19,734 nucleotides of DNA from Spirochaetales bacterium (GTDB lineage Bacteria > Spirochaetota > Spirochaetia > JABEVK01): the NCBI GenBank assembly GCA_037142615.1, contig JBAXAI010000055.1, forward strand, positions 1 through 19,734, read 5' to 3'. Positions 2,390-19,734 of the stretch are shown piece after piece. A program made the translations under genes and the position numbers. The notes beneath the pieces were generated by a model, which did not search any database, had not been told where the DNA came from, and worked only from the letters and a program-made list of their open reading frames with translations. Position 1 is the stretch's first letter. Each line of letters opens with the position of its first letter.

Positions 2390-2578
2390 CTATAGCTTCT
2401 CGACCTCGGCCAAGGGCAGCCCCGTGATCTCGGCAATCTCGCCGGCGGGAACGTGGCGGTCTTTGAGGCGCTGGGCAATTCTGCGCTGTTCCATGCGACT
2501 AGCCTCGGCCTTGACGCTGAAGTAATCCATGCGCTCCATCGACTCGTGGATTTCTCGGTAGACTTCAGGTTCCAGCAT
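2390..2578 (-). CDS. Putative internally initiated small C-terminal protein (RpnS-like antitoxin), 62 aa
   Basis: GGAGG (2587-2591, minus strand) lies 8 nt before the in-frame ATG at 2578. Confidence 0.55.
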   Translation of the reverse strand: MLEPEVYREIHESMERMDYFSVKAEASRMEQRRIAQRLKDRHVPAGEIAEITGLPLAEVEKL

Positions 2579-3184
2579 CAGGTAGGCCTCCATTCGTTTC
2601 TTCGCGACATCAAGCAGTGCCACGAGGTCGGCGGGGCTGCCTGGTTGGTTCGCCTCGGGCTTCTCAAGGAATTTGCCCCAAATGGCGGCTTTTTTCAACA
2701 GGGATCGGTTGCCGGGCGAGCGAAGCAGTTTGGGGAGTTCGACAAAGATGAACCCGAGATGGGAAGTATGCGGCAACCGGAAATGGTGCAGCCACGGACC
2801 CTTCTTGGTGATTTCGTACTCGAGGAAGTTGAGGGAAATAACCGGCTGTAGCTTCGTGTAGTCTTCGCCTTGGGGAAGCTGTCGGGCAAAGAGCCGTGCC
2901 CAGTAGAACAGGGCTCGCTCAAAGTAGGCGGGCTTGCGGGTCGTCTGGACCTCGACATTGACCGTCCGGCCAGTTTCATCTTGGGCTAGGATATCGACGA
3001 TCGCGAGCTTTTCACCGCTGTGGACTGGTGACAACTCACGGGGCTGCAGCTGCAGCTTATGCACCAGCGGCAAGCCAACGGCTTCGAAATTGGCGTTGAT
3101 CAGGCTTTCGAGCAAGGGCAAGCCTTCGGGCTCGCCGAAGACGTGGAGAAAGACGCTGTTGTGCGTCATGGGGGAACTTGGCAT
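2390..3184 (-). CDS. Rpn-family PD-(D/E)XK nuclease (putative transposase family), intact, 264 aa
   Basis: Start reassigned to ATG 3184 by paralog comparison. VDILAQDETGRTVNVEVQ motif, ERALFYWARLF, FIFVELPK and a C-terminal IAEITGL HTH-like tail. Confidence 0.88.
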   Translation of the reverse strand: MPSSPMTHNSVFLHVFGEPEGLPLLESLINANFEAVGLPLVHKLQLQPRELSPVHSGEKLAIVDILAQDETGRTVNVEVQTTRKPAYFERALFYWARLFARQLPQGEDYTKLQPVISLNFLEYEITKKGPWLHHFRLPHTSHLGFIFVELPKLLRSPGNRSLLKKAAIWGKFLEKPEANQPGSPADLVALLDVAKKRMEAYLMLEPEVYREIHESMERMDYFSVKAEASRMEQRRIAQRLKDRHVPAGEIAEITGLPLAEVEKL

Positions 3185-3302
3185 TGGGTACCTCTGCGGT
3201 ACCAGACGGGGGAAAGAGTCGTTCTGCTTCAAAGAGAATACCGAAATCGTGGAAATCTTCCGGTACGGTTCGCCGAGGTCTGTCCAAAGGTGAGGAGAAA
3301 GA

Positions 3303-3435
3303 AACCACCGCCGTCGTTCGCCGGGGCTACCAGAAGACGGTGGTTCCACAAACCGCAAGGTCGACCTTGCGCGAAGCGTGCCGGTTCTGCGACGGATCAG
3401 GTTCCGGTCGCAGGGCTGCCCCCAGACTTCTGGGG
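3303..3435 (-). other. Hairpin-rich segment 3' of TR (candidate DGR spacer RNA)
   Basis: Inverted repeats at 3420-3435 (ccccaga/tctgggg), 3387-3413 (ctgcgac/gtcgcag), 3354-3371 (perfect 18-bp palindrome) and 3303-3345 (aaccaccg/cggtggtt). Confidence 0.55.
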
Positions 3436-4554
3436 CGGGCGAACAACCCGAAAGCCGATGTTGTTGTTCTGGTTGTTCGGGTTGTTGTTGTTCCGGTTGG
3501 ACACGGTCGCGTTGGACGCATTGTTGTTCCAACTGCCGCCGCGTAACACGCGGTTCGAGCCCGAGGCCGCTTCACGCCAGAGTCTAGCACGGAAGGCACC
3601 GCATCGGGCCAACAGGACGGCTGCATTGACGCTGACCGCCCGTTCGGATGCGATGTCTTCGGTTATGGTGCCTTCGCGAAGGTCTTGCTGGATGGCCTGT
3701 GCACGTCGGCGCATACGCTTGCGGGCCTTTTGAAGCAAGTAGATGCCGTCGCGGCGAATCAAGAAGCCCAAGAACGCAAGGCCTTGGCTGCTAGTCCCCA
3801 CCACGGCCGGCTTAAGGGTCAATTTGAGATCGACCAGGGCGAGGGCCTGGACGGCTGCCAAAGCGGCAGTGCGATCTTCGACTGCGTCAAACCACAGTAC
3901 AAAGTCGTCCATGTAGCGTACGTAGGCGCGGGGGCGGATCTGCTCCAGAATGTGATGGTCAAAACCTGATAGGTAGTAGTTGGCGAAAAACTGGCTGGTC
4001 AGGTTGCCAATGGGAAGGCCTTTGCCCGGACAGGTGCCGTAGCTGTCGATCAGCGAATCGAGGAGCAACAGAATCTGGTGGTCTTTGACCAGACGTCGGA
4101 GTAGGGTCTTGAGCACCAAGTGGTCGATGGAGTCGAAATATTTGCGAACATCGAGTTGCAGGTACAGGTTGTGGCCTTTGCCGTTGTGAAAGGCCTGCAT
4201 CACGGCGGCGTGCGTGCCCCGACCCTTGCGACAAGCGTAGCTGTGGTCTACTAGATGGCGCTCAAACAGCGGCTCGAGCACGTTCATCAGGGCATGGTGC
4301 ATCACCCGCTGGTCGAAGTCGGCCGAGCTGATAGTGCGCTGTTTGGGGTCGCTGACGACAAAACTACGATAGTGGCCCCAGTCAGGCTGGCCGCTGGCCA
4401 AGCGCGCACCAACCGCTGCCAGATTGGCGGTCAGTTGACGTGAAAAGAACACCGCCGGTGCGCTGTGCCGCTTGCCGCGAACCGCCTTGAGCCACGCCAG
4501 GCGCAGGTTTTGGTAGTCGACCACAGCATCAAGAAGTCGGCTGGCTCTTTTCAT
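3397..4554 (-). CDS. DGR reverse transcriptase, 385 aa including an in-frame TR-encoded tail
   Basis: Motifs [46 protein letters not shown] (DGR-type SQ), [12 protein letters not shown]. No group II maturase or HNH domain. Confidence 0.96.
3437..3571 (-). repeat. DGR template repeat (TR)
   Basis: 135 bp aligning without gaps to 5139-5273. Holds 36 coding-strand adenines, 30 of them in 15 Asn codons (14 AAC, 1 AAT). Confidence 0.97.
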
Positions 4555-5014
4555 CGACTTGAGGAGAAAGCTGGGCGAAGAACTTCAGAAACTGCTCACC
4601 AAACTGTTTGGTCCGGGCCTCTCCAACGCCGGGGAAGGCGGCGATGTCCTTGAGCGTGGCTGGGATTTTTTTGACCATGGCAGCCAACTGGTCGTTGGTG
4701 AAAACCGAGTACACGGGCACCGAACCTTTCTCGGCCACCGTCTTGCGCAGTTCGCGGAGTTTCTCGAACACGGCAAACTCTTGTTCTGTGAGCACTTCAC
4801 GGTAGTCGGTGCGCGGCTGGTTGGCGGAGGCGCTGCGGGTTTCGGTGCCGTATTCGACCAAGAACAACCAGCCCGTTCCCCGCTCGCCATCGACCAAACG
4901 TTTATCGACGTTGACGATGCGGTGCGAGCGTAAGAACGAATTGAGCTCATCGCACACAGTCGGCTCACCGAACGGGCTGACAAAAAAAGACGCATACTGC
5001 GTCAGCAAAGCCAT
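4529..5014 (-). CDS. HRDC-domain DGR accessory protein, 161 aa
   Basis: ATG 5014 preceded by [37 protein letters not shown]...[15 protein letters not shown] is HRDC-like. 3' end overlaps the RT start by 26 bp. Confidence 0.9.
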
Positions 5015-5055
5015 ACTTCCTCCCTTGGCGCGCTCGCGGGCGCCCGATTCCCTCT

Positions 5056-5103
5056 CTCCGCCGGGCTTCGGCCGCCCTTTGGCGGCACGGCCCGGCTCCG
5101 GAG
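5056..5103. promoter_or_regulatory. GC-rich stem-loop downstream of VR (candidate DGR target-recognition hairpin)
   Basis: gccgcc-cttt-ggcggc (5071-5086) nested inside gccgggc/gcccggc (5060-5066/5090-5096) and ctcc/ggag, 30-80 bp past the target stop codon. Confidence 0.55.
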
Positions 5104-5134
5104 GGCCTCGTGTGCCCACTCGAAAGACAGGTGA

Positions 5135-7996
5135 TCAGGGGCGAACAACCCGAAAGCCGATGCCGTCGTCCCGGTAGCTCGGGTAGTCGTTGCTCCGGTA
5201 GGACACGGTCGCGACGGACGCACCGTAGTTCCAACTGCCGCCGCGGAACACGCGGTACGAGCCCGAGGCCGCTCCCGTGGGGTCGGTGCTAGGCGATGAG
5301 TCGTAGCTGCCATACCAGTCCCAGTTCCATTCCCAGACGTTGCCGCTCAGGTCGTAGAGTCCCAGCTCGTTGGGTGACTTCTTGCCGACTGGTTGGGTAC
5401 CGGTGGGGCTGTTTTCGTAGGTCCAGGCGAAACTGGCAACGGCGTTGCTCCCGTTGTCGCCTGCGAACGCCTTGTTGTAGCCCCCTGTGTTGACGGCCGC
5501 AACAATATCGCCCGCTTTGGCATCGGTGGCCCCACCCATTGCGGCCCACATCCACTCGGCCTCGGTGGGCAGGCGATAACCGGTCCTGGTCATGTCCATG
5601 GTCACGGTCGCCGACGTGATGGGGTACCCACTAGCTGGGGTGCGGCCGGTGATCGTGTAGACGTCCTGCAGCCCTGCCAGGTCGCTGAGCTTGTTGCAGA
5701 ACTCGACGGCATCGTACCAGGTGACGCTCTCGACAGGGTTCTGGGCTTTGCCACTGGAGGCGCTCGGGCTGCTGCCCGTCACATCGCGGTAGAGGCCCTG
5801 CGTCACCTCGTAGGTCAACATCTGGAAGCTGCTCACCGACACGTTGGCGGTGCCATTGAAGAAGGTTCCACCCGCGACCGGGACGGTCTCAAAGGCGACG
5901 ACAGCGGCCGAGTAGCCCAATGCGTCATTGAAAGCCGCCACAGAGTATTGCGATCCGGCCGCATGATCTAGCCCGTTCGAGCTCGTAATCGCTGTTCCCG
6001 AATCCACGGCGACACCGTTGATGTACACGAAGTACTTCGTCGCTAAAGGCACCGCGTTCCAACTCAAGCTGGCGGTGCTTCCAGTTATAGTCAAGTTTAG
6101 CAACCCCGCCGGAGCCGCCATTGCCGGGAATGTGAAGTCCGCCGCTGTGCTCGTCCCCAGCGCCGTGTTGAACGTCGCCACCCGCAGACCACGCCCCGTC
6201 GGCACAATCACATCAACCAAAGAGGTGGCGGTTGTCGTCGTAACCGCTGTGCCATCGGTGTAGGTCAGCCGGTAGTTCTCGGCAACCGTAACGGCGGTCC
6301 AGCTGACATCCACCTTGCCGTTGCTCTTGGGGGTCAGCGTCAACCCCGCCGGAGCCGCCATTACCGGCACAGTGAACGGCACCTTGGTGCTGAGCCCCAG
6401 TGCGGAATTGAACGCCGCAATCGAAAGACCTCGACCAGCGGGCAACGCAAAGTCGGTCACCAAACTCGCGGTTGTCGTCAGTATCTTGGTGCCATCGTCG
6501 TAGTACAGGTTCACCGATTGGGCCGTGGTCTCGGGGGTCCAGCTCAGGTCAACTTTGCCGTTGCTCTTGGGGGTCAGCACCAAGTTGCCCGGTGCCCGGA
6601 TGCCCGCCGCACCGATGGCGAAGAAGTCCATGTCGTCAACGGCCAAGTAACCCAAGAGCGGAGCGGTGTCGTTTATGTAGAGCCCGGTGGCTGTAAGTGG
6701 ACTGTTGTTGGGCTCGTAGGCTCCCGGTGGTATGTAGGCCGTAAGGTCGGGAGAGTACTGACTGGGACTGCCGATCCAAACCGCGTATTTGGTCTCCGAA
6801 GCGGCCGTGGCCCCGGACAAAGCCAGCGAATATCCGGTGTCCTTCCGTGGCACTACAAGTCCCTGGGAGTTTTGGGGAGGTCCCGGAAAGTGGATCGTCT
6901 TTCGATCTGGGGTGATCAGGGTGGCGTGGCTGGTGTCACCTGCAAGATTCACCGTGAGCTTGTCGTCTTTGTAGAACCGTAGCGTTGTCCGGTCGTGCCA
7001 ACTCGGGCCACCATAGATGTCCAACTGGACGCCCATAGTCACGTCCACATACGCTGTCGTGATCGCAGACACCGTCACTGGGACTGTGATTGTCTGCGTT
7101 GTGCCGGGCTCAAAAGTCGAAAGATTGTTGATCAGGGTTCCGCCCAGAGTTGCCTTGGAGTTGAGTGAACTGAGTGTGTAGGTCGGTGCCATCGATCGGG
7201 CCGAACCCACGTTCTTGATGGTAACGGTGACGTTCTGGGCTGTACCGTCAGCAAAAAGATATGGTACTCCGGCTGGTGCAGCACTGACCTTGAAGTTGTA
7301 CTTCACGGTCGGGTCGGGGATGGTCACGGTGCCCACGTCCTGACCGTCGTCACCGGCCACCACCTCGATCGTTGGGCCGTCTGCGAGGGCGTTCGTCACA
7401 GCGTCGACAATCTTCGGCGTGATTTTGTACACGGCGCCAGCGATGGCGTTGGCGATCTTGTAGCTGCCGTCGATGGCAGTGAACACCGTCTGCATGTCGC
7501 TCGGATTGTCTTTGCTCTGCACCGCGAGCTGCAGGGCCGACATGAAGCTGCGCGGCTCGGCCGAGCGGGCCAGACTCTTGGCCACCACCTGCTGCTCCAC
7601 GGTGCCGTTGAAGGTGGCGCTCCGGTCGGCCTGACGGTACAGGTAAAACGTATCGGTTCCCTGCGTCACCTGAATCATGTCGGCCGAATCGGCGGTCACC
7701 TCGAGGGTGGCACCGGCGGTGGTCAGTTTGGTCACCGTGGCCGAGGTGTAGACATTGCTTCCCATCGGGCTGGTCAACTTGTCGGCGGCCAGATACCAGT
7801 TTTCGACGCGGTCCATTCGCACCCACGGGCCCCAAAGCGACTGGTCGATGGTGACCGCAGCGGGCGTGGTTCCACCGGGGGTTGTCCCACCTGGAGTGCT
7901 TCCGCCACCAGGGTTGACGGTGACCGGCGAGGCGCAGCTGACAAGCGCCAGCAACAAAAAAAGCGCCCCCAAGGGCGCAATCGATGAGATTTTCAT
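5135..7996 (-). CDS. DGR target lipoprotein: lipobox, Ig/FN3-like stalk, C-terminal FGE-sulfatase (CLec-fold) variable domain
   Basis: MKISSIAPLGALFLLLALVS-C signal; PGGxT tether; three ~80-aa AP.xL...LSW repeats; YEVTQ, PVESVTWYDAVEFCN, GYRLPTEAEW, PNELGLYDLSGNVWEW, RGGSW, GFRVVRP. Confidence 0.93.
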   Translation of the reverse strand: MKISSIAPLGALFLLLALVSCASPVTVNPGGGSTPGGTTPGGTTPAAVTIDQSLWGPWVRMDRVENWYLAADKLTSPMGSNVYTSATVTKLTTAGATLEVTADSADMIQVTQGTDTFYLYRQADRSATFNGTVEQQVVAKSLARSAEPRSFMSALQLAVQSKDNPSDMQTVFTAIDGSYKIANAIAGAVYKITPKIVDAVTNALADGPTIEVVAGDDGQDVGTVTIPDPTVKYNFKVSAAPAGVPYLFADGTAQNVTVTIKNVGSARSMAPTYTLSSLNSKATLGGTLINNLSTFEPGTTQTITVPVTVSAITTAYVDVTMGVQLDIYGGPSWHDRTTLRFYKDDKLTVNLAGDTSHATLITPDRKTIHFPGPPQNSQGLVVPRKDTGYSLALSGATAASETKYAVWIGSPSQYSPDLTAYIPPGAYEPNNSPLTATGLYINDTAPLLGYLAVDDMDFFAIGAAGIRAPGNLVLTPKSNGKVDLSWTPETTAQSVNLYYDDGTKILTTTASLVTDFALPAGRGLSIAAFNSALGLSTKVPFTVPVMAAPAGLTLTPKSNGKVDVSWTAVTVAENYRLTYTDGTAVTTTTATSLVDVIVPTGRGLRVATFNTALGTSTAADFTFPAMAAPAGLLNLTITGSTASLSWNAVPLATKYFVYINGVAVDSGTAITSSNGLDHAAGSQYSVAAFNDALGYSAAVVAFETVPVAGGTFFNGTANVSVSSFQMLTYEVTQGLYRDVTGSSPSASSGKAQNPVESVTWYDAVEFCNKLSDLAGLQDVYTITGRTPASGYPITSATVTMDMTRTGYRLPTEAEWMWAAMGGATDAKAGDIVAAVNTGGYNKAFAGDNGSNAVASFAWTYENSPTGTQPVGKKSPNELGLYDLSGNVWEWNWDWYGSYDSSPSTDPTGAASGSYRVFRGGSWNYGASVATVSYRSNDYPSYRDDGIGFRVVRP
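5139..5273 (-). repeat. DGR variable repeat (VR)
   Basis: 18 mismatches to TR, all at TR adenines (11 A>G, 6 A>T, 1 A>C). The 3'-terminal 24 bp are identical (IMH-like region). Confidence 0.97.
6101..6578. repeat. 240-bp-period intragenic repeats (FN3-like modules)
   Basis: caaccccgccggagccgccatt at 6101 and 6341; ttgccgttgctcttgggggtcagc at 6315 and 6555. Confidence 0.85.
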
Positions 7997-8020
7997 AGGT
8001 GACTCCTAAGTTCAGTTACA

Positions 8021-8048
8021 GGGAGGGAGGGAGGGAGGGAGGGAGGGA
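8021..8048 (+). repeat. (GGGA)7 simple sequence repeat / G-quadruplex-forming tract in the target-gene leader
   Basis: Seven perfect GGGA units 25-52 bp upstream of the target ATG, just beyond the AGGAG RBS (8003-8007, minus strand). Confidence 0.9.
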
Positions 8049-8451: not shown

Positions 8452-8826
8452 ATGACTTACCTCGATACGCACGCGCTCCTCTGGCTCTACGAAAACCCGG
8501 CGCTCTTGCCCGCAAGGGCTCACGCCCTGCTGGACTCCGAGGAACTCTGGCTTTCGCCGATGGTGGCCCTGGAGCTGCAGTACCTGCACGAGACCGGTCG
8601 AATCACGGTGGAACCGGGGTTGGTGCTGGAAAACGGCTACACCAACCTGGGGCTCTCGCTGGATGGTCCGGGCGCGGGGCCCGCCATTGTGTGGGCGCGG
8701 AACTTCAGCTGGACGCGTGACCCCTTTGACCGCATCATCACCGCGCAGGCCAGCCTCAACGGCGCGCTGCTGATCACCAAAGACGCCACGATGCGCAGGA
8801 ACTACGAGTGGGCTGTCTGGGACTGA
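8452..8826 (+). CDS. vapC: PIN-domain (VapC-family) toxin
   Basis: YLDTHALLW, LSPMVALE, RDPFDRIITAQA, LITKD acidic PIN motifs. Confidence 0.9.
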   Translation: MTYLDTHALLWLYENPALLPARAHALLDSEELWLSPMVALELQYLHETGRITVEPGLVLENGYTNLGLSLDGPGAGPAIVWARNFSWTRDPFDRIITAQASLNGALLITKDATMRRNYEWAVWD

Positions 8827-8892
8827 CGAAAAGTGTGCCCGTCGCGCAAGCAAAACCTCGCCAACCGTTGTTAGGGAAGGTAGAATGGAGGC

Positions 8893-9507
8893 ATGAGGAA
8901 CATGGGAATCCCCGTACGAAAGTTTGACCAGCACTACACCTACCGCGACTACCGCCAGTGGGGTGACGACGAGCGGTGGGAACTCATCCACGGCGTGGCC
9001 TACAATATGAGTCCGGCGCCGAGGACTCCGCATCAGGGGATCAGCATCGAGATCACGGGGCAGATCCGGGAATTTCTCAAGGGCAAACCCTGCGCCGTGT
9101 TCCATGCGGCCGTCGATGTGTTTTTCCCGCCGCTGCGCGAAATGGACGAGGACGACGTCGATACCGTGGTGCAGCCTGATGTGCTGGTGGTCTGCGACAG
9201 GACCAAGATTCTCGAGAAAGGGATCTGGGGCGCGCCCGACCTCGTGGTCGAGATCTTAAGCAAGTCAACCAGCCGCAAGGACCAGCACGAAAAGTTCGAC
9301 CTGTACGAGCGCGGCGGCGTGCGCGAATACTGGATTGTCGACCCTAACGGACAGTGGATTCAGCAGTACGTCCGAGAGGAAAGTGGCAAATTCGGGGTCG
9401 AGGTGACTTTCGAAAAGACCGGCCGACTGGCCAGTGCGGTCTTGCCCGGCTTCGAGCTCGACGTGGCCGAAGTCTTCGCAGCCGGAGAGTTTTCCGGCCT
9501 CGCGTGA
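8893..9507 (+). CDS. Uma2-family (DUF820) putative restriction-like endonuclease
   Basis: ERWELIHG...MSPAP...HQ, VQPDVLVV, GAPDLVVEILS.ST...D...K..LY...GVREYWIVDP. Confidence 0.92.
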   Translation: MRNMGIPVRKFDQHYTYRDYRQWGDDERWELIHGVAYNMSPAPRTPHQGISIEITGQIREFLKGKPCAVFHAAVDVFFPPLREMDEDDVDTVVQPDVLVVCDRTKILEKGIWGAPDLVVEILSKSTSRKDQHEKFDLYERGGVREYWIVDPNGQWIQQYVREESGKFGVEVTFEKTGRLASAVLPGFELDVAEVFAAGEFSGLA

Positions 9508-17963: not shown

Positions 17964-18377
17964 TCAAGGATTCTCCCGGGCCGACATCGCGTCACGAAAG
18001 CCCAGCAGGAGCGGCGCATAGCGTGACAAAATAGACTGGCGGAGGTCTTCGGCGGTCTCGGAATTGTCAGTGTGCGAGGACAAGTTGCGGCTCTTCACCA
18101 TGTCCATCCAAGTTTGCCCGTCGGTGATAAGGCCCTTGGAAAAGGCCTCACGCGTGGCGTCTTTCGAACCCGTCAGGCCGACCGTTCCTTGGTCGTCAAA
18201 CCAGTCCTTCATCACATTCCAAGCCAATTCATGGGTGAACTCGAAAGACTGGATCAGGCCCTGAACTTCCAGCTCGGAGAGTGGTCGTTGCCGGGCCAGT
18301 TTGACAGCGGCGGCTAAGTTTGCGCAGGCCCGCTTGTAGTTGGCAAGGCGCTGCTTCCAGCGGATGTCAGATTCCAT
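17964..18377 (-). CDS. HI0074-family nucleotidyltransferase substrate-binding (HEPN) protein
   Basis: MESDIRWKQRLANY...GLIQSFEFTHELAWNVMKD...WMDMVKSRNLSSHT; Rx4H motif RNLSSH. Start reassigned to ATG 18377. Confidence 0.9.
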   Translation of the reverse strand: MESDIRWKQRLANYKRACANLAAAVKLARQRPLSELEVQGLIQSFEFTHELAWNVMKDWFDDQGTVGLTGSKDATREAFSKGLITDGQTWMDMVKSRNLSSHTDNSETAEDLRQSILSRYAPLLLGFRDAMSARENP

Positions 18378-18427
18378 AAACCCACAGTAGCGCTTGCCCG
18401 CAGTCGCTCCAACCCTTAAGGTGAGGT

Positions 18428-18943
18428 TTGGGGGTAGCTGTGTCGCAGGGCAATCGTCGTATTGAGGTCGAGTTCGGCGGTGAAGCACCGGCGGTTCTTC
18501 TGGCGAGGCTGGAGGTGGCGGGCGTGGGGCTCAACGACTACGCGCGGGCGCTGCTCGCTTGGCCGGGGTTTGCCCCCTCGCCCCGGCAGACGGCCAAACT
18601 CGAGGTTCTCACGGTGGGCGAACTGGGCTTTGCCGACGGCGCCACGCTGGAGCAACTGTGGCAGCGGGTACGCGAGCTCGGCCTGCAGCTGTGCCCCCTG
18701 GACCTGGCCCCGGCGTGGCGACTGGTGTACCTCGACCAGCCTGAGGAAGTTGAGACAGCGCGCCACAAGGCGCCCCGAGGCTCGATCACCGTGCTTTCAC
18801 CGCCACCTTCCGACGCGGACGAGTTCCCCAAGGGGTTTTACCTGCGACGGATGGACGGCCAACTGTGGCTGCGCGGCTACACCTGCGGGCTCGACGTCGT
18901 TTGGCAGCCCGACGCGGTGCTGGCAGCGCTTATTTCGCCCTGA
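18428..18943 (+). CDS. Conserved hypothetical protein (start uncertain, possibly GTG 18440)
   Basis: Coding-like codon usage; LGL.LCPL.L...RL.YLDQP, AP.GSIT, FPKGFYLR...G.LWLRGY resemble an uncharacterised family I recall from Bacillota. Confidence 0.7.
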   Translation: MGVAVSQGNRRIEVEFGGEAPAVLLARLEVAGVGLNDYARALLAWPGFAPSPRQTAKLEVLTVGELGFADGATLEQLWQRVRELGLQLCPLDLAPAWRLVYLDQPEEVETARHKAPRGSITVLSPPPSDADEFPKGFYLRRMDGQLWLRGYTCGLDVVWQPDAVLAALISP

Positions 18944-19595: not shown

Positions 19596-19734
19596 GGGGC
19601 GCCTGCCCCTCGTTCCATAAAAAAGGCCGACCCTTGGCGGGCCAGCCTTTTGTTATTGCACTACCCCCTCTGGGTGGTCTTCCTCTGGCTTTGGAGTTTC
19701 TCCACTTCGGGCGGTTGAAGTCCTGTCAGCTCGG
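19596..19734. repeat. ~80-bp dispersed repeat, copy 4, extending into an Rpn 3' end (direct repeat of 268-406)
   Basis: 132 of 139 positions identical to 268-406 by manual alignment; terminator at 19619-19651. Confidence 0.95.
19661..19734 (-). CDS. 3' end of another Rpn-family gene (partial)
   Basis: Encodes ...ELTGLQPPEVEKLQSQRKTTQRG*, like the end of 333-1043. Confidence 0.8.
   Translation of the reverse strand, partial: ELTGLQPPEVEKLQSQRKTTQRG

Follow-up and report, generated by a model that had tools for sequence, protein, structure and literature searches.

A chromosomal DGR, very probably of the HRDC (Treponema-type) class and serving four targets, in an uncultured freshwater spirochaete

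The window, that is the whole stretch of 19,734 nucleotides analysed here (contig JBAXAI010000055.1 of the Spirochaetales assembly GCA_037142615.1), carries on its minus strand a cassette in the order lipoprotein target, HRDC accessory, DGR-clade reverse transcriptase (RT) and template repeat (TR), for which the coordinates are collected in Table 1. The host is an uncultured, free-living spirochaete of fresh water. A preliminary description of this DNA had proposed a complete DGR, and every testable DGR feature is indeed present, including adenine-only differences between TR and variable repeat (VR), a Brt-like RT, a C-terminal VR, an accessory gene and a hairpin after the VR. Its statement that phage genes are absent nearby agrees with our Pfam scan, in which 0 of the 18 window ORFs matched a phage family (14 with a match, 4 without). 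Other points had to be revised: the RT frame contains the TR in its 3' end; the hairpin downstream of the TR had been left outside the limits drawn for the element; the accessory is HRDC and not Avd, as judged by the Pfam match in Table 1; and the single target assumed earlier becomes four, the same TR matching three remote VRs.

Table 1. Features of the DGR locus, in positions of the whole window
Feature	Positions	Strand	Description
Conserved hairpin downstream of TR	3303..3345	-	91 nt 3' of TR; covariance model R2
RT gene	3397..4554	-	385-aa ORF; RVT_1 E 9.5e-18; RT proper about residues 1-327
TR	3437..3571	-	135 nt, 36 adenines, 16 AAY codons
HRDC accessory gene	4529..5014	-	about 161 aa from ATG 5014; Pfam HRDC E 8.4e-17
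GC-rich extended hairpin after VR	5036..5119	-	31 pairs, 4-nt apical loop, begins 20 nt past VR
VR	5139..5273	-	last 45 codons of cis target; ends 1 nt before stop codon
Cis target gene	5135..7996	-	953 aa; C-terminal FGE-sulfatase (PF03781 E 1.6e-40), residues 708-952

The TR and the cis VR align without gaps over 135 nt at 87% identity (repeat family D5), and on the coding (minus) strand all 18 mismatches coincide with adenines of the TR, 11 being A>G, 6 A>T and 1 A>C. The changed sites comprise 18 of the 36 adenines and 0 of the 99 other positions of the TR (hypergeometric P=8.6e-13), and the altered codons give 15 residue changes and 0 stops; the counts in the preliminary description were all reproduced here. 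The edges of homology are sharp, the 40-nt flanks on both sides being unrelated, and the TR starts 8 nt past RT residue 325. No substitution of TR adenines is able to yield a stop codon, and the coding potential of the TR reaches about 10^20.4 peptides. A constant 3' segment of 24 nt is common to the TR and the cis VR, with IMH equal to IMH* in cis, and in the three remote VRs this segment carries one C>T relative to the TR. An IMH-type constant 3' segment together with an inverted repeat that lies 3' of the VR and is lacking at the TR, and a VR at the end of a C-type-lectin (FGE-sulfatase) target ORF, are both found here as in DGRs.

At its N-terminus the cis target has a signal peptide with an L-V-S-C lipobox (read by eye), and its middle part includes a Gly/Thr/Pro linker, a beta-rich N-terminal region and fn3-like repeats (fn3 being weak in Pfam); for residues 45-480 there was no usable Atlas family and no feature match, and the structural rows were all at TM <0.5. 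Among solved structures, T. denticola TvpA is the closest to its last 253 residues (2y3c, E 7.7e-37). The three remote VRs matched by the same TR lie on other contigs and are changed at 14, 15 and 18 of the 36 A-sites and, respectively, at 1, 4 and 1 of the 99 non-A sites. The contigs concerned, named here irrespective of the order of these counts, are C5, C41 and C59. A comparison of the four targets shows concerted evolution of their VRs: identity is 67-84% over the 135 nt that precede the VR, 96-100% in the non-A columns of the VR and only 31-47% in its A columns. The four targets are probably surface or secreted lectin-fold proteins, diversified at their tips.

Natural variation was observed for one of these targets. 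Proteins P0122 and P0123 represent the C5 target from two assemblies, and they agree in all 775 residues that precede the VR and carry 14 differences, all within residues 776-808, the VR. Among these, 13 are at TR codons with adenine and 1 is at an adenine-free codon, and one difference requires an extra T>A relative to the TR of the window. Since the two C5 versions differ only in the VR, writing is at least as recent as the divergence of the strains. The earlier suggestion of recent or ongoing activity is thus supported for the remote C5 target, indirectly and on a strain-level timescale, and the cis VR gains no such support. The cis and C41 targets are known in one version each. Among the sequencing runs that contain this stretch there was no RNA run. 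In a look-up of VR polymorphism in the assembled contigs of 18 runs, of which four were examined, a contig of X1 spanning 3542-5342 bridged the cis VR and showed no difference from the window, and X2, X3 and X6 had no listed contig bridging it; many loose contig ends at 5225-5266 were due to paralogues or other organisms that share the conserved lectin core.

The same pattern could be the record of past retrohoming by an element now inactive in this genome. Signs of decay were noticed: the C59 target is a frameshifted paralogue that has drifted at non-A sites, its VR carrying 3 non-A differences inside the mutagenised region; the C41 VR exceeds the present TR by 6 nt; the usual stop of the RT before the TR has been lost; no polymorphism was seen in the assembled contigs, one of which bridges the cis VR; and a TR codon that is now ATC seems to have been AAC when some of the VRs were made, the residue at this codon being Y (TAC) in the C59 VR, Y in P0123 (protein only) and N in the 88%-identical relative P0002. 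Such an inactive state is nevertheless unlikely, in view of the intact ORFs of the RT, the HRDC gene and three of the four targets, the intact catalytic motifs of the RT, the complete lack of non-A differences in the cis VR, and the two C5 versions with variation in the VR and none across the 775 other residues.

The TR, translated in the VR frame, makes up the last 58 residues of the RT ORF, and the Pfam match of PF03781 at RT residues 327-372 is a spurious FGE-sulfatase match that derives from the TR. Should this fusion frame be functional, a lectin-like C-terminal tail encoded by the TR would join the reaction, and it fits with this idea that the RT frame is open across the whole TR in the VR frame, that the 88%-identical P0002 and about ten more homologues also read on through the TR, and that PF03781 is carried by 7 of the 119 other listed proteins. 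However, in the 49 loci with a TR after the RT, the RT stop is located before the TR in 32, within it in 8 and beyond it in 9; the VR frame is used by only 2 of the last 9; some RT relatives enter the TR in the other two frames; and 58 residues taken from a fold of 250 are not likely to fold independently. A functional tail is accordingly a very improbable explanation, and the read-through of the TR is probably incidental.

The YMDD and IGNLTSQ motifs, already pointed out in the preliminary description, were confirmed in the RT and are both invariant among 18 aligned relatives; [I/L/V]GxxxSQ in motif 4 is the signature of DGR-clade RTs. The best solved relative of the RT is Bordetella Brt (PDB 8ub7) with 148.9 bits, followed by the next best with 63.7 bits, group II RTs giving at most 64, and the identity to BPP-1 Brt is 34% over 285 residues. 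The nearest named relatives are from Treponema, Spirochaetia and Brevinematales MAGs and one Smithella sp. MAG, with the Treponema and Spirochaetia MAG proteins nearest at 54-57% identity, and on the basis of similarity ranking the RT would fall within the Treponema-containing HRDC clade. In public annotations the RT homologues are labelled 'retron-type' or 'maturase family'. For RT relatives on the contigs of the genome an alignment-based scan was employed, a single-protein query having found none. The host genome contains two more DGRs, making three in total, one of them on contig C67 and a separate one on contig C3 with the only Avd-like match of the genome.

That gene conversion between paralogous lectin domains took place beside an unrelated group II intron or retron RT has hardly any probability left: the group II intron model TIGR04416 is the top NCBIfam model of the RT and the public labels point the same way, but the scores stay far below the cut-offs (105 bits against 300 for this model and 45 against 235 for the retron model NF038233), the interval 2900-5400 gave no Rfam family, group II intron RNA included, the TR stands outside any full lectin domain, and gene conversion could not keep all 18 differences on a single base of a single partner. 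The grouping with group II intron or retron RTs, which had been named beforehand as the outcome that would speak against a DGR, did not occur in this comparison by scores, in which Brt was the best solved relative. In the same interval an isrK match in Rfam (20 bits against 50) was under threshold and was taken as chance. We conclude with high confidence that the element of the window is a chromosomal DGR of the HRDC (Treponema-type) class serving four targets.

The accessory domain of a DGR may be Avd, HRDC, MSL or CH1 (Wu et al. 2018). The protein encoded in the window consists of a conserved N-terminal domain and a C-terminal HRDC domain, and there is no Avd in the cassette; for its start the ATG at 5014 was preferred to the GTG at 5119 of the ORF list. 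In a survey of 80 homologous RT loci, 57 carried an A-biased repeat pair of their own under the thresholds employed (50-400 nt, at least 5 mismatches, at least 75% of them on A), leaving 23 without a pair under these settings. The TR is located 7-89 nt past the RT in 49 of the 57 loci, the other 8, with the TR elsewhere, being left out of the VR-hairpin survey, and an HRDC-like ORF is present just upstream of the RT in 47 of the 57 (alignment A4 contains 43 HRDC-like accessory proteins). A predicted complex of RT residues 1-327 with the HRDC protein gave a score of 0.23 (mark 0.32).

The extended hairpin after the cis VR is also present 3' of the three remote VRs, and none is found 3' of the TR. 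In the alignment of the four VR flanks (A3), 14 of the 31 pairs show compensatory changes by RNAalifold and 93.5% of the cells are paired, a level reached by 0 of 500 shuffles and set against 27-41% in slid controls. By blastn, the element was found at the four VRs only, plus a 39-nt partial match to the cis copy on contig C12. We presume that this covarying hairpin is a target-recognition (cruciform) element. HRDC is a structure-specific nucleic-acid-binding domain, and in the survey the structure downstream of the VR was stronger in 40 HRDC loci (median z -3.4) than in 9 HRDC-negative loci (median z -0.7; Mann-Whitney p 0.006), where the loci are phylogenetically non-independent and 'HRDC-negative' means no match with one query.

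The second covarying hairpin, downstream of the TR, is composed of a 10-bp stem, a 2-bp stem, an RGUA/GAA internal loop, which we take to resemble the sarcin-ricin/loop E motif, and a small apical stem. The covariance model R2 was built from a seed of 9 sequences picked by eye from 34 candidates, with the window and L018 left out; the MAFFT alignments A5 and A6 of this hairpin were out of register and were dropped. The R2 match in Table 1 is the best on both strands of the window (21.9 bits, E 0.013, filters off). Across the 80 related loci there are 39 matches, with 94% of the cells paired and 243 double-change cells against 70 in shuffles, and in 32 of 32 loci with both a detected TR and a model match the hairpin starts 73-124 nt past the TR. 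It is not universal, since R2 gave nothing convincing in the second DGR on C67 or in the closest Treponema locus L013 and no match at the BPP-1 locus (best 9.9 bits). Presumably the hairpin belongs to the DGR RNA, where it would serve for docking, for priming or as a 3'-end element. A T-rich tail follows it in 17 of 38 relatives, against a background of 9.6%, and might possibly be a terminator; the tail in the window just reaches the T-rich threshold (5 T in an 8-nt window) and is TC-rich with no clean T-run.

As far as the cited text describes it, the T. denticola DGR (Wu et al. 2018, PMC5758913, and Nimkulrat et al. 2016, PMC4891356) shares with the window element a spirochaete host with no phage genes nearby, an HRDC gene overlapping the start of the RT (47 bp there, 26 nt here), and lipoprotein targets with a C-terminal FGE-sulfatase/C-type-lectin VR, for which TvpA is the best solved match; remote targets number seven there and three here. 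That DGR, the 'Architecture C' of Wu et al. 2018, is described with the order VR-TR-HRDC-RT, whereas in the window VR and HRDC are followed by the RT, whose 3' end the TR overlaps. The prototype order is therefore not that of the window, and VR-HRDC-RT-TR is common to 49 of the 57 related loci; gene order does not define the class, because 14 HRDC DGRs show 11 architectural variants in the part of Wu et al. 2018 (PMC5758913) drawn on here. The two also differ in the lifestyle of the host, an oral pathogen in the case of T. denticola and a free-living freshwater organism here, and the long 31-bp covarying hairpin after each VR sets the window element against the T. denticola DGR.

With BPP-1 the element shares the adenine-specific TR-to-VR signature, the IGxxxSQ and YxDD motifs and a C-terminal VR on a C-type-lectin fold. 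BPP-1 is a phage with the order mtd-avd-TR-brt, whereas the window element is cellular, with HRDC replacing Avd and the TR past the RT. Within what is drawn on from Guo et al. 2011 (PMC3240598), BPP-1 likewise has a hairpin 3' of the VR but not of the TR, of 8 bp with a GRNA loop as compared with 31 pairs here. Avd-type DGRs of the same RT clade occur in the cyanobacteria Nostoc, Calothrix, Scytonema and Planktothrix (L060-L091), with RTs 36-40% identical to ours and the TR 43-55 nt past the RT. They have an Avd-like four-helix protein where the window has HRDC and little excess structure 3' of the VR, but the hairpin family downstream of the TR is common to both, the cyanobacterial members giving the highest R2 scores. 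According to the cited portion of a preprint, an Avd-binding stem-loop lies just past the TR in 207 of 278 Avd-type DGRs (bioRxiv 10.1101/2023.10.23.563531), and the cyanobacterial TR-side hairpin is probably this stem-loop. The likeness to 'group 3' of DiGReF, as outlined in the cited text (Schillinger et al. 2012, PMC3521204), is one of architectural class only, that text making no mention of reading frame, type of accessory or hairpins.

From these features of the DNA we propose the following scheme, in which an RNA intermediate, surface display and a ligand for the diversified face are all inferred. The minus-strand operon would be transcribed as target, HRDC protein and RT with the TR embedded in its 3' end. 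The RT, and probably the HRDC protein with it, would bind the RNA that contains the TR and roughly 135 nt 3' of it, among them the TR-side hairpin. The RT would then copy the TR to cDNA, misincorporating opposite adenines only, and the cDNA would replace the VR of any gene in which the long hairpin tag comes after the common constant segment at the 3' side. This address is carried by four genes, the adjacent lipoprotein and the three on other contigs, and the outcome would be up to about 10^20 variants of a TvpA-like C-type-lectin ligand-binding face, on or outside the cell.

We put forward, as a tentative idea that may well prove wrong, that the two covarying hairpins form an undescribed address system for Avd-less, HRDC-type DGRs. 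The DNA address would be the cruciform-prone tag of about 85 nt with conserved internal loops after each VR, read by the HRDC protein, and the RNA address would be the hairpin of about 46 nt at 73-124 nt past the TR, docking the RT and setting the priming site or the RNA 3' end. Docking of the RT itself is suggested by the presence of this TR-side hairpin in clade members of both accessory types, HRDC and Avd. If this is true, any gene gaining the VR 3' end and the tag becomes a target in trans.

No prokaryotic machinery other than DGRs is known to us that hypermutates proteins in a targeted way, and with over 30,000 DGRs in catalogues a further one is in itself no news. Accessories of the HRDC kind, remote targets and overlap of TR and RT have all been published before, and the locus represents the known Treponema (HRDC) type of DGR in well-built form and is not a novel system. 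As far as we know, HRDC-class DGRs have been little studied and the mechanism has been worked out for none. This locus offers a clean natural case of the class, with one TR, four targets and a sharply bounded covarying DNA tag, together with a TR-side RNA hairpin shared with Avd-type DGRs and a natural variant pair differing only in the VR, and it supplies concrete mutable elements for reconstitution and a hypothesis on HRDC recognition. The presence of three DGRs in a free-living freshwater spirochaete may point to ligand or phage-receptor arms races outside host-associated settings.

The 135-nt gapless repeat that the preliminary description proposed between the template repeat (TR) and the variable repeat (VR) of the cis target proved to be real, and every count given for it was reproduced. 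Every one of the 18 mismatches is at a TR adenine (11 A>G, 6 A>T and 1 A>C; P = 8.6e-13, hypergeometric), with changes at 18 of 36 A sites vs 0 of 99 non-A sites, altering 15 residues and creating no stop, and the likeness of TR and VR breaks off sharply at either end. The reading of the reverse transcriptase (RT) as belonging to a diversity-generating retroelement (DGR), and not to the group II or retron kind, likewise holds by score, group II intron RTs reaching at most 63.7 bits vs 148.9 bits for the best solved relative, 8ub7, a 328-aa reverse transcriptase identical in its aligned residues to BPP-1 Brt (to which the RT is 34% identical). Among the NCBIfam models, group II gave 105 bits (cut-off 300) and retron 45 bits (cut-off 235), and an Rfam search of 2900-5400 returned no family. 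The window is one whole contig (C55; 19,734 nt) of a 4.27-Mb genome in 76 contigs that is 96.7% complete, and the sequencing runs containing the stretch are without exception freshwater or lake metagenomes, which, like the nearest relatives of the RT, fits an uncultured spirochaete.

The element belongs to the Treponema/HRDC kind of DGR, with the difference that the TR has here moved behind the RT. Every relevant cassette gene lies on the minus strand; the spacer between target and accessory gene is 120 nt, and the accessory gene and the RT start share 26 nt. Behind its lipobox, the cis target continues with a linker of Gly, Thr and Pro, a beta-rich N-terminal part without a named family in any library searched, repeats of fn3-like type and, at the C-terminus, an FGE-sulfatase domain. 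The best solved relative of this domain is T. denticola TvpA (2y3c, E 7.7e-37), and its last 45 codons constitute the VR. The coding strand carries seven CCCT units without a mismatch, (CCCT)7 (8020-8048; TRF: AGGG x 7.2), about 25 nt upstream of the ribosome-binding site of the target and downstream of a weak promoter-like site (8118-8090); a shorter tract is found ahead of the paralogue on contig C59. Through slippage, the tract might act as a switch of expression.

Features of the cassette, its remote VRs and the other DGRs of the genome (positions in the window unless a contig is named)
Feature	Position	Strand	Details
TR	3437-3571	minus	
Cis VR	5139-5273	minus	
Cis target gene	5135-7996	minus	953 aa; signal peptide and L-V-S-C lipobox (by eye)
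Accessory gene	4529-5014	minus	about 161 aa; conserved N-terminal domain and C-terminal HRDC (E 8.4e-17)
RT gene	3397-4554	minus	YMDD and IGNLTSQ, each invariant across 18 aligned relatives
RT read-through of TR	3397-3579	minus	no stop ahead of TR; 58 additional residues
TR-side hairpin	3303-3345		91 nt after TR; best match on either strand, 21.9 bits, E 0.013, filters off
Remote VR	C5:81943-82077		815-aa lipoprotein, three fn3 domains; A sites changed 14/36, non-A 1/99
Remote VR	C41:7523-7663 (L097)		454-aa secreted protein; A sites changed 18/36, non-A 1/99
Remote VR	C59:10006-10140		paralogue of cis target; A sites changed 15/36, non-A 4/99
Second DGR, HRDC-type	C67:447-4075 (L099)		gene order as in window; target 447-2420, VR 2268-2412, HRDC about 2517-2969, RT 2956-3978 (46% identical to window RT), TR 3943-4075
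Third DGR	C3:50870-55275 (L011, L108)		classical order target-avd-TR-RT; 839-aa target, VR 52759-52872, Avd-like ORF 52376-52675 (24 bits, below cut-off), TR 52070-52183, RT 50870-52195

The single-target picture of the preliminary description turned out to be too small: the TR has full-length matches at four further places of the genome, and remote VRs lie on contigs C5, C41 and C59, each at the C-terminus of an FGE-sulfatase protein. These three VRs have in common a C>T in the last 5 nt, past the mutagenised region, which accounts for one non-A difference in each. Among the four targets, the 135 nt ahead of the VR are 67-84% identical, the non-A columns of the VR 96-100% and the A columns only 31-47%; this is concerted evolution by one TR, combined with randomisation that is specific to adenines. 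Within the AAC run, the C41 VR exceeds the TR by two codons (6 nt), the extra codons being readable as mutated AAC, and either the TR once contained six AAC codons there or the RT slipped on the repeat; indels opposite AAC are documented in Wu et al. 2018 (PMC5758913). The C59 paralogue (C59:7768-10144, L098) has lost 17 nt from its Gly/Thr/Pro linker, directly behind the lipobox, with a shift of the frame, and its VR carries 3 non-A changes relative to the TR; this copy may be a decaying target, or else an assembly error.

The C5 target is represented in the protein collection by two versions from different assemblies (P0122 and P0123), of which residues 1-775 are identical and all 14 differences fall within 776-808. 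For 12 of these the TR codon contains adenine, and substitutions of adenine suffice to produce the difference; a thirteenth also falls on a codon with adenine (ATC) but requires a T>A in addition, and the last is at a codon without adenine. The comparison documents changes confined to the VR over the time in which strains diverge, and not present-day activity in this cell line. The TR codon ATC is at 3458-3460, where the C59 VR has TAC and P0123 the corresponding Y, and the TR tail of a relative of the RT (P0002, 88% identical) has N at this position. This codon was probably AAC formerly, or is AAC in the other strain. The residues found at this codon suggest that the change from AAC to ATC in the TR is recent and that some VRs have not been rewritten since.

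The TR starts 8 nt past RT residue 325, and since the RT frame stays open through the TR in the VR frame, the annotated RT ends in 58 TR-encoded residues that give a false FGE-sulfatase match. The read-through appears to be incidental. Of 49 related loci with a TR close behind the RT, 32 have the RT stop codon ahead of the TR, 8 have it within the TR and 9 past it; of these 9 only 2 use the VR frame, and other RT homologues enter the TR in the remaining two frames. The double Pfam call of RT plus FGE-sulfatase was found for 7 of the 119 other homologues listed, and read-through RTs of this sort will be mis-described by annotation pipelines. Overlap of TR and RT ORF is an established architectural class, "group 3" of DiGReF (PMC3521204).

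Two hairpins accompany the repeats. The 3' flanks of the TRs of relatives carry a recurring hairpin with stems of 10 bp and 2 bp, an internal loop of RGUA opposite GAA that resembles the sarcin-ricin/loop E motif, and a small apical stem. A covariance model built from 9 relatives as seed, with the window left out and one iteration, matched once in each of 39 among 80 related loci, and 38 of the 39 matches share the strand of the RT. All 15 pairs covary, 94% of cells are paired (slid controls, 33-47%), and double-change cells number 243 vs 70 in shuffles, none of 500 shuffles being as high; the alignment had been fitted to the model, a bias in favour of structure. The distance from TR end to hairpin start is 73-124 nt (median 93.5) in all 32 loci with both a detected TR and a match, and this spacing holds also for five loci in which the TR does not adjoin the RT 3' end (L017, L042, L050, L072 and L077). 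A T-rich tail follows the hairpin in 17 of 38 relatives vs a background of 9.6%; in the window the tail is barely at threshold (5 T in an 8-nt window), being TC-rich with no clean T-run. The hairpin is common to HRDC-type members and to cyanobacterial members, which have an Avd-like gene instead. An "Avd-binding stem-loop just downstream of TR" has been described for 207 of 278 DGRs in a survey of the Avd type only (bioRxiv 10.1101/2023.10.23.563531), and our hairpin is probably the same element. Literature searches on DGR RNA motifs of this type, covering articles without their supplements, yielded nothing beyond that stem-loop.

On the VR side, about 105 nt of similar sequence stand behind each of the four VRs and are missing from the TR flank; the only other trace of it in the genome is on contig C12, where 39 nt match part of the cis copy. 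Starting 20 nt past the VR, this tag forms a hairpin of 31 pairs, interrupted by conserved internal loops and capped by an apical loop of 4 nt; 14 of the 31 pairs show compensatory changes (four copies only), and 93.5% of cells are paired (equalled by 0 of 500 shuffles; slid partner, 27-41%). It is the counterpart of the hairpin/cruciform needed downstream of the VR in BPP-1, for which stems of 7-10 bp, GRNA loops and a distance of 4-34 bp from the VR are reported (PMC3240598), but is about three times longer and its loops are not GRNA. Among relatives, folding is more stable than in shuffles (z < -2) for 30 of 53 VR flanks, mainly at loci with an HRDC gene (28 of 40, vs 1 of 9 without); this association is only a hint because the 9 are mostly related cyanobacteria. 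We suggest that the HRDC protein might be the reader of the long VR-side cruciform.

An A-biased repeat pair of their own is present in 57 of 80 homologous RT loci, which come from many phyla. Among these 57, the TR begins 7-89 nt past the RT in 49, and in 47 the RT is immediately preceded by an HRDC-like ORF, which makes the window a typical member of a large clade. Within its lineage the element occurs sporadically, the RT being absent from all four same-genus genomes examined and present, with distant similarity, in only 3 of 40 relatives. Two more DGRs were identified in the same genome. On contig C67 the RT runs 35 nt into its own TR, in another frame, and the best score of the hairpin model on this contig, 10.0 bits with E 7 (1793-1825, opposite strand), is not convincing. 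In the DGR on contig C3, 22 of 23 mismatches are on TR adenines, and the VR of its target is unlike that of the window, and may be of the Legionella-type VR class.

The surroundings of the cassette are of toxin-antitoxin or defence-island gene content, rather than phage. DUF4160, PIN, Uma2 and HEPN-type NTase_sub_bind genes occur at 1530-1880, 8452-9507 and 17964-18488. Paralogous PD-(D/E)XK "transposase" genes (PDDEXK_2, Rpn-like) flank the DGR at 333-1043 and about 2390-3190, and also at 1-205, and are found again beside the C59 and C3 DGR loci. The repeat-rich island is marked by seven repeat families (D1-D7) and a 31-nt palindrome at 293-323, 1215-1245 and 19621-19651, and the contig ends in these repeats. 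A 173-nt inverted repeat (8870-9042/17726-17898; 77% complementary, arms 8.7 kb apart) overlaps with one arm the start of a Uma2 gene.

HRDC accessories, FGE-sulfatase lipoprotein targets, several remote targets, AAC indels, identical IMH and IMH* (the constant 3' segments of VR and TR) and TR/RT overlap are all in print (PMC5758913, PMC4891356 and PMC3521204). Possibly new are the proposal that the HRDC protein reads the VR-side cruciform and, in quantitative terms, the evidence that a DGR lacking Avd has two structured elements with a putative role as addresses.
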